The notes under the pieces: model-generated
The model's input: only the letters and a program-made list of their open reading frames with translations
The model's database searches: none
What the model was told of the DNA's origin: nothing
Translations under genes and position numbers: made by a program
Shown here: positions 1 through 46,500 of the stretch, in pieces
How positions within the stretch are numbered: the first letter of the stretch is position 1
Layout of the letters: each line of letters begins with the position of its first letter
Source: Octopus vulgaris
Taxonomy: Eukaryota
Direction: 5' to 3'
Length of the DNA stretch: 64,000 nucleotides
Assembly: GCA_951406725.2 (NCBI GenBank)
Contig: OX597817.1
Span: 20,274,001-20,338,000, forward strand

Positions 1-206
1 TTGTGAATTTTTGGCAGCTTTAATAAGAAAGTATATGTATATAGGCACAGGAGTGGCTGCGTGGTAAGTAGCTTGCTTACCAAACACGTGGTTACGGGTT
101 CGGTCCCACTGCGTAGCACCTTGGTCAAGTGACTTCTACTATAGCCTCGGGCCGATCAAAGCCTTGTGAGTGGATTTGGTAGACGGGAAACTGAAAGAAA
201 CACGCC

Positions 207-244
<38 letters not shown>

Positions 245-248
<4 letters not shown>

Positions 249-515
249 AATTGCAGCGTGGAAGGTGTTTGTAAGCCATTTAAGAAATACACAAAAGCCG
301 TTCGATTCACTTTAACATATGAGTTTAATTTGTCAAAATATTTTCGTCGCTATAAGACCGAGACCTGTTCACTGACAAAAATCCGTGCAGCACGGATTTT
401 TGTCTTATTGCGACGAAAATATTTTGAGAAATTAAACTTATATGTTGAAGTGAATCGATTGGCTTTTGTGTGTTTCTTAAATGGCTTACAAACACCTTCC
501 ACGCTGCAATTGTTT
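245..515. repeat. ~270-bp palindrome centred at 389; probable inverted PLE terminal repeats
   Basis: AAACAATTGCAGCGTGGAAGGTGTTTGTAAGCC… is mirrored by …GGCTTACAAACACCTTCCACGCTGCAATTGTTT. The centre is GACAAAAATCCGTGC-A-GCACGGATTTTTGTC. Confidence 0.9.
329..379 (-). ncRNA. putative minimal type-I hammerhead ribozyme, G3-C8 core variant
   Basis: Minus strand reads TTTGTCA-GTGAACA-G-GTCTC..GCGAC-GAA-AATATT-T-TGACAAA: 7-bp stem I, stem II with one mismatch, palindromic stem III. Confidence 0.6.
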
Positions 516-561
516 TCGTTCCAGCATACGATCTCAGATCAAATCACTTGCTATGCAAGTA

Positions 562-602
<41 letters not shown>

Positions 603-9888: not shown

Positions 9889-12540
9889 TATAGTTGAAAT
9901 TTATAGAAAAACAAAAGACGAAGACAGGCGTATGAACAAGCAATTTATTAGTTTTACGCTCGGGAAAATGAAAAAGTCCTTTATGTTTCGGGTCGACGCT
10001 CTTCAACAGAAAGGAATAAGAGAAAATAAAGGGAGTGAGAATGAAAAAGGATTTGTAGATGTTAGCTGTCCAGCATGATGAATGATTGGGGGAAATATAA
10101 AGAAAGGGAAAATAATACAAACAAAATAATTTTGAATAAAAGTGAGATAAAGTGCTGGTGATCCCAAGAAAAAGGTGCGTTTGCGAGTATGTATATATGA
10201 GAATCATATCTGTGAGTGAGTGTGTGTGTGAATAGGGGTGAGTGACGCTGACGTGTGTGATTGTGTATGTGTGTAACGTGTGTGTGTAGCTGTAGATGTG
10301 TGCTTTCTCACGTGGTGTGTGTGTATGTCTGTGACCATACGGTGTGTATGGTATATATATGTGGACGAAAGTTGTCTTTGCCTATGCAAGTTACGTGTTT
10401 TAATGCGTGTCCCGTGTGTATGTATATATAGCATCTTTTCAGGTATTATCTACTTGCTTGGGTATAGGAGTGTAGGTATGGGAGTGTGGTGTATGTTAAC
10501 TGAGTTAAACAATGCCTTTCGATGCTCATATAGTAGTATCTTATGTGACGCTATTGAATATTGTGGGTCGGTGATGATATGTGGCATAGGTGCTGGGAAG
10601 TGGTCAGTGTTAGTGTGTGTGGAGTGCTGTGGGGTTCTTATCAAATGAAGAGAGGATTTGAGGTTGGTGTCAAATGAAGAGAGGAGGTGAGTTGAGCTCA
10701 TGTGGCGCAAAGGAGCAAAGAGAAAAGATTAATTCCTATTCATATCACGCGTGCGCGTGTCCGTTTGGCCCCTGTGCAAAGACAGTCGGGAGAGAGACAG
10801 ATGTTCTAGTGAATGACAGGTAGAGCGGAAATATCGCGTGACCGGCGTGTCATTGCCGAGCCTGCTGCCTAGGAGATGCCAAGCGGCGTCCCGTTTGACA
10901 AATTTACAGGGAAGGACAGAGAGAGCAGGAGATGCTGCTGGTAGAAGTGCAGGTAATGGAGTTGGTGATATGAGAGGGACGATGATGGGTGCTTGGAGGA
11001 TGGTGGTGTTGGAGCGATCGGAGCAGGTGTGACAGCGGGGGCAGGGGGGCGAACGAGCCAGGCTGGTAGGTTAATTTAGGAAACAAACTATGTACAAGGG
11101 GGCTAGGCAGGTTATGGGCTCCTTTGAAGGTTGGGGAAGATGAGCGAGGTGAAGAGAGCGGACTGAAGTTGCCGGAAGGCTGACGTTGGTGCGTTGGAGG
11201 GGCAGTGTTGTGGGTTGGTAGCGTAGGGCACACTGAAGACGGCAACGGTAGGGCCGGTATGAGGCGAAAGAGTAGATGCATAGTCCACAGATCGTGCCTT
11301 GGCAAGGGAAGTGTGGATAGTGGTGAGAGAATATCCACTAAGGATGAAATGGTGAGCCATGAGTTGAGACTGAGTCTCAAAGTCATGGTTGTCACTGCAG
11401 AGCTTGCGCAGACGGAGGAATTGGGAGTAGCGAATGGAGAGCTTGCTATGGGTAAAGTAGTACGAGAAGTTACGGTAGGAGTGTCCGTCAGTGTGTTTGT
11501 AGTGGATTGAAGTAGTGAGGGCGGAATGGTGTATTCTAACAGAATTGACGAGAAATCCGATGGAAGAATTAGAAATAGTGCAGGAGAATTTGGGGGTAGG
11601 ATGGAAGGATTGGATAGAAGAGAAGAAGGAGTCTAGTTGTTCGACGGAGAGTGAGGGCACACCGATACACTCATCGATATAACGGTCGTATAGTTCGGGT
11701 TTGGGACTAGTGAATTGTGAGAACATTTGTGTTTCAAAGTAGTCAATGAAACGTTCGCATAGATGGGAACCATTTTCATTCCCGTGGCCACTCTCGAGCA
11801 TTGATGGTAAAAATCCCCCGCGAAAGAGACACACTTGAGGGAGAGAACAAGTTCGGCCAGACGAAGAAGTGTGGAGGTTGTGTGTGTGTGTGGGGGGGAT
11901 ATCAAGAGTGAAGAGAAACTTAGAGAGGCTTGAAGAGAAGGAGAAAGAGTTAAAAAAACGAACAGCATGATTAGTGCGTGGCTGTTGGAGTAGGGGGCAG
12001 CCTCCAGGAAGGTAATGACATGGTTGATGTATTTGGAGATACTTTTTGTGGGACAGTTGCAGGTGGAGAGGATAGGGCGGCCAGTGTTGTTGTGCTTGTG
12101 AATTTTGGGAAGTAAATAAATAGTAGGGACGCATGGAGTTCGGACAACGAGGTTGAAGGCGGCGGAGGCATACCGGAGGAGAAAATGAGGTCATGAATAT
12201 TGAAAGACACAGTTGGTATTTAGGCATGGGTTTGGAGTGTAGAGGGCAGTATGCATCACACCAACACAGTTCCACCATTGTCGGTTGGTTTTATGATGAT
12301 ACCTTTGCGGCGTCTGAGACATCTACGGGCTGAGATTTCGGGCGGAGAAATGTTAAAATGTCCAGGACGTCTACGAAAGCTGAACCAGTCCACAACACTT
12401 TAGCAGATGCTTGCAAAAGGATCAACTGCTTGGAACTGGCCAGGAGCTAGCGTCCATTGGGATGGTTGACAGTCTAGGTCGGTGAAGCAGTCCTCTTCCT
12501 TAGATGAATGTGGAGCGTTGTAGAATAGAGCATATTACCT
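9889..12540 (-). mobile_element. degenerate Penelope-like element (RT, GIY-YIG remnant, 3' terminal repeat)
   Basis: Motifs IIIKPTD (KPADKG-like), VATGMKMVPIYAN, YDRYIDE, TTSIHYKHTD, SIRYSQFLRLRKLCS, ISCSLCPSL and LIFSLCSFAPHELN. The terminal segment 9889-10020 is homologous to 51001-51110. Confidence 0.85.
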
Positions 12541-32131: not shown

Positions 32132-35100
32132 TCTATGTTTGACTTTTGCTTTATATTTGTACAAGTTGGCTCCAAGTCTCACCCAGAGACCTCAAGAGAC
32201 AACAGGGTTGGAAGTTCATGTTGTTGTTATGCCTAGTGTGCCATATATTTGGGGGGTGGGGATGTTGTACTAATGAATGTCTAAAAAAAAAAAAAAGTTT
32301 TTTTTTTTTTTTTTTTTTTTTAAACCGAAAATTATGTTTGTTTTAAACCTTGAGATTACATAGAGAGTATTTTGCGTAGGATATGAGCAGTTCCCATGAG
32401 CACTATCTTTTGAACTTCTGCCATTTTTGGGTTTCTTGGTATCTGAGTTAGGTAGCTATCAGCCCCTTTTGCTATCATTCCCAGGGCACCTATGACAACA
32501 GGTATTGTTTTAGTCTTCAGCTTCCACATTTTGCTGATTTCTATTTCAAGATCTTTATATTTGCTCAGTTTTTGGTAGGTCTTGACAGATACGTTTATAT
32601 CGATTGGGACAGTCATATCAATGAGGAGGCATGTTCTTTGTTTGAAGTTTTTCAATATGATGTCTGGCCTATTTGCATCTATCTTCCTGTCAGTTTGAAT
32701 GGTGAAGTTCCAGAGGAGTGAGATGTGGTCATTTTCAAGCACTGGGGGTGGTTTGTGTTCCCACCAGTTTTTTTCATGGGGCAAATCCAGGTTTTTACAG
32801 ATTACCCAGTGAATATATTGTGCAGCTCTATCGTGCCTGTTGAGATACTCTGTAGGCGCTAGAAGACTGCACTTGGAGACCACATGGTCAATGGTTTCAT
32901 TTTGTTGCTTGCATACACGACACGTTGGACTGCTTCTGATCTTTAATATGTTGGCCTGGTAGTTTCTTGTTGGTAGGCATTGATCTTGAGCTGCTATGAT
33001 AAACCCCTCTGTTTCAGATTTTAAGCCAGAGGCCATTAGCCATTGATGGGTCAGGGCTTTGTCGATATCTGCATTATTCGCTCTCTTTGGGTATTTGCCA
33101 TAGAGAGGTTTTTCTTGCCATTTATTATTCAGAATATCTAAGGCCGCAGTTTTGGCACGGGTTTTCATGCGCCTAGCTTTTTCTGTGCTTGTTTCTTGTA
33201 TATCTATCTCTAATTCCGAAATTGGTTGTATTCGGAGTTCACTTAGATATTCCTTTGCCTGTTTTGTGACTGAGTATGATGCTTTCTTGTTTTCATGTTT
33301 TGAGACAAGTTTTAGCATCCAGTCCTCAGAGTTTTTCAGGTAGGTGTCTAGGCCAATTGTAGCAATCTTCATTGTTATTGCCAGTTGCAAAAGACCACGG
33401 CCTCCTCTTTTCTTGGCAGATATAGTCGTTCTGTATCTGCCTTAGGGTGGTGCATTCTATGCATTGTCAACAGTTTCCTTATTTTTCTGTCGAGCTGACA
33501 TATTTCAGTAATTGACCAGTTAACAATATTGAAACTGTAAGTCACGACTGGTATAGCTAATGCATTGGTTGCTTCGATCCTGTTTCTTGCATTCAGCTCT
33601 GTCTTGAGTATTGCTCTCACTCTTCGATAGCATTCTCTCCTGATCCTTTCCTTCATCTCTGAATGCCTTATTCCGTTCCCTTCAATTATCCCTAGGTACT
33701 TGTAGCTCTCCGCTGGGTCTAGTTCTTTTATGACATTCTGTTGGTCAAGGTTAACGTTAGATGTTTCTGTCATTTTTCCTTTGATAAAGGTAGCCTTTGC
33801 ACATTTATCGAGGCCGAATTGCATTCTGATGTCGTCACTGAATTGTTTGACTATCGCTAGTAAGCCCTTGAGTTGTTGATCATTTTTTGCAAAAAGCTTT
33901 AAATCATCCATGTAAACGAGATGATTTATATTTTTATCAAACATTTTATACCCGTACTGCGCGTCATTGAGCAGCTTTGAGAGAGGTATTAAGGATAAAC
34001 AAAAGAGGAGTGGTGACAGTGAGTCACCCTGGAAAATGCCACACGAAATTTTTACATCACCAGCATTTAGGGATTCACTGTCACTGTTCAGAGTTAGTGT
34101 GGTTCTCCATGATCTCATACTTACAGTCAAGAAGTTTCGCAGAGTTGGTGCTATCTTATACATTTCAAGGCATTTCCTAATCCAGCTATGTGGTAGGCTA
34201 TCAAAAGCCTTTTTATAGTCTATCCAGGCTATTGATAAGTTTTTGTGTCGTTTGTGACAATCTTCTAAGATCATCTTATTGATGAGTAGTTGGTCTTTAC
34301 AGCCGTAGGATCCACGTTTACATCCTTTCTGTTCATTAGGGAATATGCTGCTGTCTGTTAAAAAACTATAGGTATATTCCGTCAGGACAGATGTTAGTGT
34401 TTTGTACATAGTTGTTAAGCAGGTTATGGGTCTATAGTTTTTTGGTTCATTTGTTTCTTCACTTTTTGGAAGCAGGAATGTTAACCCATTAACTAGCCAA
34501 GGAGGCATCCTACTAGGGTGTTTCAAAACATCATTGTACAGTTCTGTTAGCAGTTCATGGCTCTCTGGGAAGGCATTCAGCCAGAAGTTAGGAATTTTAT
34601 CCTTTCCTGGAGACTTCCATTTGCTTGACCTCCTGAGAGCAGATCTTATATCTTCTACCTTGACACCCTCCCACTTTTGCTCTTCTAAGGGGTCCAGTTC
34701 TGTAGATATTATGTCAATCCAGGGGGCCTTTTCGTTGTGTGTTTTTTCTTCTGCCCAGATTTTATTTCAAAATCTCTGCACTTCTTCTTTTGATGGTACA
34801 GACCCTGCAGTAAACGCTGTTTTTCCTATCTTCCTGTAAAAATTCTTGGTGTTATTTTTGAACATGTTGTTGTCCTTGAAAAATCTAACACGCTTTTCAT
34901 ACCTCGCTATGCGGGCAGCTTTGGCAGATACCTTTTGTTTGATGGTTTCTATGGTGGCATCAATATCAAGTATAGTTTTCATATTGTATTTTTTCAGTAA
35001 TTTTTGGGTTTTTGTAGGTTTGGTAATCTTGTGAGCCTTAAGGTTTTTCAAATATTCAATGTCAGATCTAAATATTTTAATTTGTTGTTGCAGACGCTCT

Positions 35101-35530
35101 TGCCAAGAAGGCTTTTGTGGGACTGTTGCCGTTTTCTAATCTTTACACCACATAGGATCGTTGAGATTTTCGCGGATGCATAGTATAGGTGGTTGAGGTT
35201 TGTGATATCAACATCATTAACTGAAATTATATCCTTAAGTGCAAGCCGGATTTTACCAATTATTTTCATGTTTTGGTTAGAGTTGCGGATTTTAGGAAGT
35301 GTATCACGCTCATCCATGCTGGTTTCTTTAATTTTCAGCCATTCAATCATGATTTGATTTTTTAGCTCATGTAGTTCTGTTGGGTCAATATTTGTGTGAC
35401 TTTCTTTATCTATTTGATGCTCATCTGTCTTAGTGTTTATGGTTGGTTCAGGGCGTATTTCACTTTGCCTATCACTTATACTAACTCTTTCAATCCTCTC
35501 TTCGTTTTTATCCGCCCTGGGCTGGTCTAT
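32132..35530 (-). mobile_element. R4-clade (Dong-like) non-LTR retrotransposon, 5'-truncated and frameshifted, in (TAA)n
   Basis: RT motifs NYRPITCL, WIDYKKAFDS, GIFQGDSLSP and YMDDLKL (33375-34526). CRVCKQQNETIDHVVSKC, RHD and RPDI…LIDMTVP…KLSKY restriction-like endonuclease (32356-33390). TAA repeats at both ends. Confidence 0.95.
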
Positions 35531-41685: not shown

Positions 41686-43535
41686 GTTAGTTAGTTAGTT
41701 AGTTAATTTGGCTCAAAAGCAAATAGCAAGGCCATGTAGGGGGACATGGAGTTAAGTACAGGGTGGTGTTCATGTAAAGAGTTCAGGCCACTTGAGGTCC
41801 AGGGAGGCTTTGAACAAAGCGGTCGTCGGCATCTTCACCATCTCGTCTGGCAGCTTGTTCCACGGATCCGCAACCCGGACGGAGAAAGCTCCTCTCCTTC
41901 GATTGAGATGGAATCGTCGCAGGTAGAGCTTTTCGGAATGACCCCGCAGCCGACGCTCTGGAGCAGGAGTGAAGAACAGCTCTTTCGAGAGGTTACACTT
42001 TCCGCTTATGATGTTGTGGGCGAGAATGAGATCGCCACGGCGGCGGCGTTTTTCAAGAGAATAAAGGTCGAGCGTCCTCAGCCTTTCTTCGTAGGACAAA
42101 TTTTTGAGACCATGAACCATGCGGGTAGCCAGCTTCTGGACTCTTTTGAGATGATGTATGTCTTTGAGGAGATAAGGAGAAGAGGCTCGAATCCCATACT
42201 CCAATATGGGTCTCACCAGCGTGACATAGAGTGGTAGGAATATGTCTGCTGTGAGCATTCCGAATGACCGTCGAATCAAGAACAGAGTTCCGCGTGCTTT
42301 GTTGGCAGCATGGACGCACTGGGCCGAAGGCGAAAAGGAGGAATCTACCAAGATACCCAGGTCCTTTACCTGATCGGTCCTCTCCAGCAGCAGACGACCC
42401 GGCTCGAAATCAAGTTGAGTTGCAGGAGTAGAGCCGACAGGCAGGTGACAGCACTTTGACACATTCAGACACAGGTCCCAATCGTTAGACCACTTCCAAA
42501 TTTGGTGGAGGCATCGACGAAGATCCTCTATATCACCGCGAGGAGGGACCAGTTTGATATCGTCGGCAAATAGAAGGGTGTGTTCCGTGAGGTCGTCGGG
42601 CAAGTCATTTATGAAGACTAAGAACAATAAGGGCCCAAGCACTGAACCTTGAGGCACGCCACTGCTCGCACTGGAGACGTCGGACCGCGAACCATTAACT
42701 TGGACTTGGAAGGAGCGATCTGAGAGGAAGGCACCAACCCATCGTACAATATCCGGATGGAAACTATATGCTTGAAGCTTCACAAGTAATAGGCGGTGGT
42801 TTACCGAGTCAAAAGCTTTGGCAAAGTCCAATAAAACGATGTCAACAGCATCACTATCATCGAGGATGCGCGTCACCAATTCTTCCATTACTAGTAAGTT
42901 GGTCAAGCATGATCTCTTCGGCACGAAGCCGTGTTGAGAATCAGAGATAGAGGCTGTGTTTAGGAGGTGGAGCATCGCACTTTTCTTAAGGATGGTTTCG
43001 AACATCTTGCTGATTATTGATGTAAGGGAAACCGGTCGGTAGTTAAGCGGGTCTTCGCGGCTCCCTTTCTTGAAAATTGGGCAGATTATCGCTGTTCTCC
43101 AGTCTGCAGGTATAACACCCGTCGCCAATGACATATTGAAAAGTCGTGTTAAGGTCTCGCAGATGGCCGGAGCCAACGCTTTGATAACCCGTGGGTGTAT
43201 GCCGTCAGGGCCGTGACCCTTGTTGACATCGAGGCCTTGAATAACACGTTTGACTTCGTCCCGCGTGATGACCAATCGAATCATTGGAGGTACCGATCTA
43301 TCAAATGGAGGGGGTTCACGACCATCATCTTGTTTGAAAATAGTTGAAAAAGCCTCGGCAAATAATTGACTCTGTTGATAAGGGTCCTCAATCGATACGC
43401 CTGTTGAGTCTACCAACGTTGCAATCTGGTTGTTCAAGCGGGAATTCCGCTGGACATGGGCAAAGAAGGTTTTTGGATTGCTACTGGCATTTGCCGCGAT
43501 TTTGTATTCATAACTGAAGCGTTCTTTCTTTACCC
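41686..43535 (-). mobile_element. 5'-truncated CR1-clade LINE with an uninterrupted 555-aa RT/C-terminal frame and (AACT)n tail
   Basis: ORF 41770-43437 has GPDGIHP, NYRPVSLTS, LDFAKAFDSV, GVPQGSVLGP, FADDIKL and RGHSEKL…FSVRVADPWNKLP. Short 3' UTR with hairpin CCATGT-CCCCCT-ACATGG. Confidence 0.95.
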
Positions 43536-46500
43536 CTCTGATGAGAAGATATATATGTACTTATTTTCTGACCTTATATTTTACGAGGATAGAAATAGGT
43601 GTCCATTAATTAATCTTTATTATCCTGTTGATGAATTACAATCGAGTGAGATGTTAAGATGTCAGATTTCATTTGATTTGATTATGCCGCCATATTCTTT
43701 AACATTCACGTACAATGAGTGATTCAAACATATAAAACGAAAGGCTGCTACTAATGTACTTATTACATGTAAATATCATTTACGTTTCTTGTAAACTTCC
43801 GTGAAGAAGAGTTAACATTTTATGAAACATAAAATTTCTACACTGTAGCTAAATTTACATACAGACCACCTTTTATATGAATTTTTTTTTCTACGAGTTT
43901 TATATTATGGCAATAAAACCACTATTAGTATTTTAATATTTGAAATAAGATTGAAGAGGCATATATGTCAACGTGTATGTTCCAGCATGGCATAATATGC
44001 ACACCTTTAAAAGAATGTATTTGTTGAAGTATTTATTAAGGGAAATGTAATTAAATGTAATAAAATATTAACACGAAAAGAGACATAAGAAATGGTAAAC
44101 CTCCAGAATGATGACTTTCCACATATCTGTGATTGTCTGTGAAAACCTGTGTGATATCGAACGATATTGTGAGAAAGCAGTATAAGATGAGGATGCAAAC
44201 AATATATCAAGAGAGACAAGAGGTGATAAATAATGAGTTCATATATATTCTCTCAAACAAAAATATAATGAAGAACAAAAATACAAAATGTTTATATACG
44301 AATGCATTCTGATGGATGCAAATAATTTTTTAATTTATATGATAATACATATAGTTACCTCTGTTAAATCAGAAACTTTAATCAACCAGTGACGGGCTTG
44401 ACAATACTACAAACATGATGAGGTTGCATAACATTTACTTCCATATTTTTTACAGCAGTTTTTGATTACAGTTTCCAATGCATATTCACCCGCTTGTTTT
44501 CATATCATTAATATTGTTTTAAGTAATGTTTTATTTCTTCTTCGACAGATAATTGTATATCTAGCACTATTACAATATTTGCTGTTGTCTGCCTTTGCGT
44601 TTCATTTATATACACACTTTCCAGAAGAATAGCAAATGAAGAACCTGTGCTTATTAAGAAATGTCAATGAACAATATTGCCTGGGCCACTCAAAAATCAT
44701 ATTCTGTTATATTAAAGCACATCTCTCTCAATCTCTCTCGATCTGTCTCTCTCACTTTGCTCTTTAATATGATTGTTCATCAATGTGTGTGTAGAAATGT
44801 ATACGGTGCATATAATTATAAACGTATACGCTGATTCATCGAGTTATTTTCTATTTCATAGTTGCACGGTATAGAATGTTATTGTTTTATTGTAATTATC
44901 ATGTTTCATCCTTGATCATGATTTGTTTTCTTCGTATTATGGTTATGCTCTTACATGAGTAGATTTCTGACCGATGCCCTCATTATTATTAGTTTTTTTC
45001 TTGTGTTTGTATTTAGAGGTATTGTTCTTCCTCATGTAAGGATTTTATACTTTATCTTTATTTTGACTGGGGTTCATTTTGCTTTATTTTGTTTGTAATT
45101 TGGTTCTCACTTCAGTTGGATATTTGATTATTCTTTCTATTCAGTCTTATCCTTGATGTTTTTCGATAGATCATTTTCCAGAATATGCTGCACATATAAA
45201 TACATAATGAAGTAAAATATGTTAAACATAGTAAAAGAGAGGAGCAAATAACGAAAAGAAACGTTGGCTTATATATTATTATTATTATTTTGTAAAGAAT
45301 GGTCGAAAAATGGAAAATAAATAAAACGTCCATATTTTGTTTCAGCAATCTCCTTGAAATATAATCACTATGTCTTCAAAATCGGTAGCCTTTACGGAAT
45401 CAATCCAGCTACCCCATAATAATAGCATCTTGTCTTTTAGATTATTTCGAACAACCGAATGGATGTATATCTACAAGGAAACAGAATCATCACCGCTGCA
45501 ACAACACGGGTCATTGAAATTAACACTGAGATAAGTGTAGGTTTTCAGTTTGACAGAGACATTACACCAGTGAGTACTCTGTTCAGTGGACGTTGCCAAT
45601 AGAAACGTCTCTGTAGAAAGGGAGATGTAATTTGTTTTCTTTATTGGATTCGCTCTTCTATCGACGTTGTTGTCGTCGTCGTCGTCGTCATCATCATTAT
45701 TTTCATTTCCTTGCTCATCATTAGCAATATATTTCCTGACTACTTCCACCTCACCATCCTCTATGAAAATTCTAAGTGATACTTGAATCTTCTATCAACA
45801 ATATGTATTTTGCTTTTTGACAAACTACATTATTCAACATTTCGGTCTAGATAAATATTTAGATATGAATAATAATTAGATTATTAGTGTCATCAAAGAA
45901 TAGGTAAATATATTGTATTTATCAATAAATCATTTAAATTGATCAAATCATCCGCAATAATAAATAAAACATAAAACATAGTTGGGCGCACAAAATGTAG
46001 CCAAGATAAATATAATACATTAAAATTAAAGCGAACCAACAAGTGTATACAATAAATTATATAACCATCACTCATTCAAGTAATATAAGTCATACCACAT
46101 AGAGTCCTGAGAAATACCCCTCGCCCGCCAGCAAACAAATGCCACATACCCTTACACAATCGGTCACACGATAATATAACTCTCATCCAATTCTTAGCAT
46201 ATATGCTGCGATAGATATCGCGACGAGGCCAACAAAGGAAATGGTAAATGAATACGAAATCTGATCAATAATTATCCGGACTTTTGCGATAGCAACGAAG
46301 CTACACCACGCAGTGAGAAGCCTCTTGCCACAAGTTGACCTTGACCTCCGTTGAGCATGTGCAGTAAGTTTATAGTTCTGGCTCACTTCTGCTGTTTACA
46401 GTGTACGTATTTGTATGCGGCTCATCCACTACACTCCATACACTTTCTGCAAATTTGTGTAGGCCTCTGGGCAAGTATCGCCATGACAACTTTCTCTGTC

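Follow-up and report, generated by a model that had tools for sequence, protein, structure and literature searches.

A Penelope minimal hammerhead with a family-wide G3-C8 core in the Octopus vulgaris genome

INTRODUCTION

Penelope-like elements carry minimal hammerhead motifs whose consensus includes an extra nucleotide that separates position 9 from 10.1, a G10.1-C11.1 pair and a stem III that is a palindrome; the published alignment often shows U17 (Cervera and de la Peña 2014, PMC4209133). In the portion of that article compared here, the only core swap named is U3-A8, in Schistosoma. What minimal hammerheads do in Penelope-like elements has been described as still a mystery (PMC7761336), and Naiad elements are reported to proliferate without canonical hammerheads (PMC8557442).

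PAc, a Poseidon element of the green anole, has a hammerhead that cuts only in the presence of protein and in which the engineered double change C3G/G8C partly restores cleavage (PMC11167929). According to the same source uncut RNA is the main template of PAc, hammerhead mutants leave in vitro insertion unaffected and no RNA ends are seen at the cut. Engineered G3-C8 hammerheads with partial activity are also described in PMC8495972 and PMC3884650. Compensatory covariation of positions 3 and 8 exists among natural core variants (Perreault et al. 2011, PMC3088659), the core-variant section of that article, figures aside, giving U3-A8 and not the G3-C8 reported below. No natural G3-C8 hammerhead was found in the parts of the literature covered (including PMC6765202 and bioRxiv 2026.07.22.740005); the Lunse et al. 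2017 survey, Arkhipova et al. 2017, supplements and figures may list one.

Here we describe a G3-C8 motif in a 64,000-nucleotide stretch of Octopus vulgaris DNA (contig OX597817.1 of GCA_951406725.2, positions 20,274,001 to 20,338,000; hereafter the window), and the retroelement family to which it belongs.

RESULTS

A minimal hammerhead motif with a swapped core

An initial annotation had proposed a swapped hammerhead at 329..379 on the minus strand of the window, and base-by-base placement recovered every element of this minimal type I motif where it had been described. Stem I is formed by 379-373 and 335-329 (7 bp); the core runs from G3 at 372 through A9 at 366, with C8 at 367; an extra G at 365 stands between A9 and stem II, which is formed by 364-360 and 350-346 with a mismatch at 361; GAA (345-343), AATATT (342-337) and U17 (336) follow, and the cut is predicted at 336/335. 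AATATT, which corresponds to stem III, is a palindrome, a feature initially missed. Core residues U4, G5, A6, A9, G12, A13, A14, A15.1, U16.1 and H17 are all hammerhead-consistent, each being found in at least 49 of 51 aligned copies; C3 and G8 of the consensus are absent, and the Watson-Crick 3-8 pair is present as G-C. The motif has the extra nucleotide between 9 and 10.1, the G10.1-C11.1 pair and the palindromic stem III, all traits of the Penelope minimal hammerhead.

The comparison first offered was with viroid hammerheads, which we take to include forms with an extra nucleotide after A9. Those hammerheads (cited in PMC4209133) share with the present motif the single unpaired nucleotide 5' of stem II, whereas here the motif lies in a genomic retroelement repeat, is of type I, lacks a stable stem III and has a swapped core; Penelope minimal hammerheads fit instead. 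Two properties singled out as unusual are ordinary in that group, since the extra nucleotide after A9 is one of its conserved traits and, as to the UUU triplet that had been called atypical, U17 is frequent in its alignment (PMC4209133). Likeness to the group described in PMC4209133 extends to location in pseudo-LTRs, orientation in the sense of the ORF, a short stem III palindrome suited to dimers and thousands of dispersed solo copies. The differences are the core pair (G3-C8 here, C3-G8 there), the identity of the extra nucleotide (G here, H in the consensus) and the length of stem I (7 bp here, 4–5 in the Schistosoma families) (PMC4209133).

The MFE fold of the motif gives stems I and II of the three-way junction. 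Its stability did not exceed that of shuffled sequences (z = −0.17 and −0.71), and since these scores are near zero the folding energy gives no support to the hammerhead. As a monomer, stem III is modelled to cost about 5 kcal/mol; in the model a dimer (−25.4 kcal/mol) has roughly the stability of two monomers (−13.8 kcal/mol each), and no more. An Rfam scan of the window returned no match to a hammerhead model at E up to 1, and none was returned for three loci, one of them a copy with a canonical core (family B, see below; E up to 10). What supports the hammerhead is its copy number and its homology. In itself, the copy in the window is probably inert.

A solo inverted insertion in the window

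Positions 245-515 constitute an inverted pair of one repeat (245-358 versus 402-515, 94% complementary), which the initial annotation had overlooked; the window copy is a solo inverted insertion of a repeat that will be called family A. The minus-strand arm (245..388) is a pseudo-LTR copy without tail: of the two 3' ends seen in the family it has the shorter one, and (TA)n follows. The plus-strand arm (386..567) has a tail of roughly 55 nt (about 514-567) and a deletion, between 404 and 405, of 18 nt containing the hammerhead core. The first codons of the element's ORF, truncated here, occupy 245..279 on the minus strand, with the ATG at 279, 56 nt past the predicted cut; the plus arm carries the same ORF start at 481. 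The (TA)n microsatellite that adjoins the short arm (208..245, no strand) is likely the insertion target, and many other copies of the family also abut (TA)n.

No tandem array of hammerhead units exists at the window site, copies being solo, in inverted pairs or flanking an ORF; a non-LTR retrozyme, which would have head-to-tail arrays of short hammerhead-bearing units, does not fit. Neither the window nor the 6 kb upstream contains the family A ORF (tblastn, E 0.01).

Other repeats are also found in the window. A SINE-like repeat (50-200, plus strand) lies immediately to the left of the (TA)n and recurs beside other loci. A decayed RT frame on the minus strand (11112-12290), which does not match the family A ORF in tblastn, has motifs that we take to be Penelope-like. 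Two further RT frames on the minus strand resemble by eye those of non-LTR retrotransposons (32356-35530, 463 + 361 aa; 41770-43560, 596 aa).

The motif belongs to a recently amplified Penelope-like element

The repeat is the pseudo-LTR of a Penelope-like retroelement with a single ORF that comprises RT, zinc finger and GIY-YIG domains. GIY-YIG (residues 915-1005 of 1025) scores above the Pfam cutoff, while RT is assigned from its motifs and from homologues named or annotated as RT, searches with the ORF having given no match to Pfam RVT_1 or in PDB. Copies share a 5' boundary about 22 nt before G3 and have two 3' ends about 55 nt apart; many adjoin (TA)n, and inverted pairs are frequent. As in EN+ Penelope-like elements, there are tandem and inverted pseudo-LTRs and an optional tail. 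One locus (L314) is a complete 4.26-kb pLTR-ORF-pLTR unit whose frame is interrupted and whose two repeats both carry the G3-C8 motif, on the strand of the ORF; in this locus and in L292 both pseudo-LTRs have the motif in the sense of the ORF. The frame starts 56 nt past the predicted cut and reads through the tail. The G3-C8 motif is present downstream in 29 of the 30 best ORF loci (the remaining one has no motif inside the flank), and of the 406 pairs that 29 ORF ends make, 140 reach 99.5% identity or more; the swapped core therefore belongs to a recently amplified element.

Membership in the Naiad clade was ruled out, GIY-YIG being C-terminal here and N-terminal in Naiad. A cysteine linker between RT and endonuclease resembles, by description, that of the Neptune and Nematis clades (PMC8557442). 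The nearest named protein relatives are from Octopus vulgaris; outside relatives with DNA are a metagenome contig (L217, 42% identity), in which no hammerhead was seen by eye in the 880 bases past the match, and one weak viral match. A Penelope-like ORF beside copy L056 was rejected as the partner, as it belongs to another family (about 25% identity) and has its own repeat.

Hammerhead-like motifs were also noticed in other repeats. A different tandem Penelope-like element on the minus strand of L121 (G000:C1:27844500-27854400) has a 775-aa RT-endonuclease frame and an upstream frame, and its repeat shows by eye an apparent minimal hammerhead in which position 4 is C and stem III is a palindrome. 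With a relaxed descriptor, further motifs were found at L199, L205 and L208, one with a canonical CTGATGA core and the others with C at position 4.

The element shares with PAc a hammerhead placed where the ORF starts, a tail delimited by two 3' ends, and AT-rich targets, and its core pair is that of the engineered PAc double mutant (PMC11167929). It differs in its natural state (C3-G8 in PAc, G3-C8 in family A) and in the place of the cut, which is inside the ORF in PAc and predicted before the ATG in family A; the tail signature of PAc was mapped experimentally (PMC11167929).

The swapped core is the state of the whole family

A 19-nt pattern of the core gave 5,888 exact matches in the 2.8 Gb genome against 0 for the reversed control, and 6,567 when positions 3, 7 and 8 were left free. 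Copies displayed among the 30 best loci carry GTGAACAG together with a paired GTCGC/GCGAC stem II, the consensus that the initial annotation had expected. When copies were picked independently of the core, via the start of the downstream ORF, 104 of 109 had G3-C8; these 109 remain from 178 distinct anchors after removal of 69: a composite present in duplicate gave 23 truncated arms, a further 23 were duplicate arms, and 23 were copies either truncated or diverged. The mismatch in stem II is a private one of the window copy; T occurs at that position in 0 of the 109 others (104 G, 5 A). No core variant at 5% or above was present in four public runs under four organism labels.

G3-C8 is thus the family state and not decay. 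That a reciprocal change would rarely arise by random decay had been argued from one copy; the swap was inherited from the element.

Variation within family A spares the structure without setting it apart from the 3' flank. A shared variant occurs in 0 of 35 structural non-CpG columns versus 5 of 8 in loop 2 (P = 6e-5), and loop 2 differs between subfamilies while the stems are invariant; yet structural columns are not quieter than the 3' flank (0 of 35 versus 3 of 45, P = 0.25). In family A the other catalytic positions, G5, G12, A9, A13, A14 and A15.1-U16.1, are all intact.

Among the first 100 matches, a single inverted pseudo-LTR insertion with the same junction and flank appears 34 times (L036, L051-L055 and others, contig C1). 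Identity of junction and flank indicates that it was multiplied inside a larger repeat.

Sister families have the canonical pair at the same place

When the pattern carried C3 and G8 in an unchanged context, 13 matches were obtained, against 1 for the control. All 10 of these that were examined belong to older repeat families, B and C, and they were rejected as revertants of family A. The repeat downstream of the motif, which lay outside the search pattern, aligns with that of family A better than any of 100 shuffles in 28 of 30 loci of B and in 20 of 30 of C, and six B loci have tblastn matches of 37–55% to the family A endonuclease region. The comparison covers families B and C; the repeat of a 57%-identical protein (P0001) stands outside it.

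Base by base, the family A motif can be aligned with canonical hammerheads that occupy the corresponding place in these homologous repeats. Family B has C3-G8 in 29 of 29 aligned copies. Family C is decayed and mixed (26 aligned copies: C-A 9, C-G 5, T-G 5, other 7), so the 3-8 pair can be lost, C3-A8 being found in 9 of 26 copies and U3-G8 in 5; these two subgroups (L259-L288) are possible intermediates of the 3-8 change, or products of decay. The A, B and C repeats are clearly diverged and their stem III sequences differ; family A retains a perfect palindrome, a 7-bp stem I, a 5-bp stem II and every other core base. Out of about 11 core positions A differs from B only at 3 and 8, which stay complementary. 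This canonical sister and the G3-C8 copies picked via the ORF bear out the reciprocal swap in a hammerhead homologue that the initial annotation had proposed. By a rough estimate, such a pattern would arise by chance about once in 165, for what is one evolutionary event.

Across the 22 rows of an alignment, both partners have changed in 6 of 13 pairs (located in stems I and II, in the palindromic stem III and at 3-8), paired cells amount to 87% versus 28–47% in slid controls, and the 3-8 states are CG in 9 rows, GC in 8 and other in 5; the rows are hand-picked and related, some B and C rows having been found by the C3-G8 pattern, so no probability is attached to these values. As the sisters and hammerheads in general are C3-G8, the G3-C8 pair is most simply derived, and it is likely a compensatory change.

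Most insertions begin upstream of the predicted cut

The 5' ends of 67 independent copies (100 downstream-anchored copies after the 34-fold duplicated composite was collapsed) lie 46-63 nt upstream of the cut in 40 cases, further upstream in 8 and at the cut in 1. Among (TA)n-joined copies on the reverse strand, 96 begin at the 5' boundary versus 15 near the cut. By hand count, 14 of 33 near-cut loci are compatible with a start at the cut; starts also occur at neighbouring positions where microhomology is equal, and microhomology with (TA)n leaves no clear peak. Since most insertions begin upstream of the cut, the templates appear to have been mostly uncut, a pattern that matches that of the anole element.

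LINE-1 copies can have an extra 5' G that corresponds to a copied cap. In family A, 10 of the 13 copies whose start is exactly the boundary A have an extra untemplated G in front of it (P = 6e-6 versus 18% G; e.g. L011, L021, L039 and L066), and we infer that this G is probably likewise a copied cap, in which case the 5' boundary would be the transcription start, about 59 nt upstream of the cut. The boundary also resembles a branch point followed by a splice acceptor; given the extra G in 10 of 13 copies, a transcription start would be the better fit.

DISCUSSION

The G3-C8 form of the Penelope minimal hammerhead described here is real and extends across the family. We think it rather probable, judging from sequence, that the motif is the pseudo-LTR hammerhead of a recently amplified Penelope-like family in which G3-C8 is fixed, and that its RNA would cleave itself slowly, with the help of a second copy or of the element's protein; for family A as such, a slow, dimer- or protein-assisted ribozyme is the likely description. 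The swap would be derived, and then retained because the 3-8 pair matters. In a tandem transcript two hammerheads may pair via the palindromic stem III, and cutting would, in a minority of transcripts, take away the 5' end ahead of the ORF or separate tandem units. Solo copies such as that of the window would have been reverse-transcribed from uncut RNA, with priming at two sites a short way into the ORF and synthesis running to the 5' end of the RNA. A bolder version, about which we are more doubtful than convinced, has an active natural G3-C8 hammerhead fixed as a tuned-down ribozyme in an active Penelope-like family, with swapped cores recurring in Penelope-like elements.

The most serious rival keeps the fold and gives up the catalysis: the structure would serve binding of the element's protein or a promoter or 5' UTR function, with negligible cleavage, and the swap would preserve the fold while nearly abolishing cutting, to the possible benefit of the family's spread. 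Mostly uncut templates speak for it, and the anole data (hammerhead mutants without effect on in vitro insertion, no RNA ends at the cut; PMC11167929) and the spread of Naiad elements without canonical hammerheads (PMC8557442) agree with it. Against it stands the intactness of all other catalytic positions in family A, and a canonical-core element also shows uncut templates, so that G3-C8 is not singled out by them; we regard it as unlikely, though worth keeping in mind. If instead the ribozyme were dead, both core changes would have drifted in a master lineage and been carried along by its amplification, and their complementarity would be luck. Conservation within the family that is no higher than in the 3' flank (P = 0.25) and the unpaired 3-8 states of family C speak for such a history, and selection cannot be proven from one event; the retention by family A of palindrome, both stems and other core bases amid diverged repeats, and a loop 2 that varies between subfamilies while the stems do not, make it distinctly improbable. 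A chance likeness in an AT-rich repeat would explain why Rfam finds nothing in the window at E up to 1 and why folding z-scores are near 0. Rfam also misses the canonical-core copy of family B at E up to 10, and the base-for-base alignment with canonical hammerheads of homologous repeats, supplied by the sister family, largely refutes chance, to which we give almost no credence. The evidence thus favours a maintained fold, for which catalysis would be the likeliest reason.

Taken alone, the window copy matters little. A compensatory 3-8 flip in thousands of copies, beside a canonical sister, would be evolutionary evidence of selection on the active-site fold, even though most templates appear uncut; so far, the G3-C8 flip has served as a laboratory rescue mutant. 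Descriptors that require CUGANGA have a blind spot for swapped cores and, if the bolder version is true, some elements scored as lacking a hammerhead may carry swapped cores invisible to surveys based on CUGANGA. Families A and B would then be a natural pair in which the role of the ribozyme in retrotransposition could be tested.
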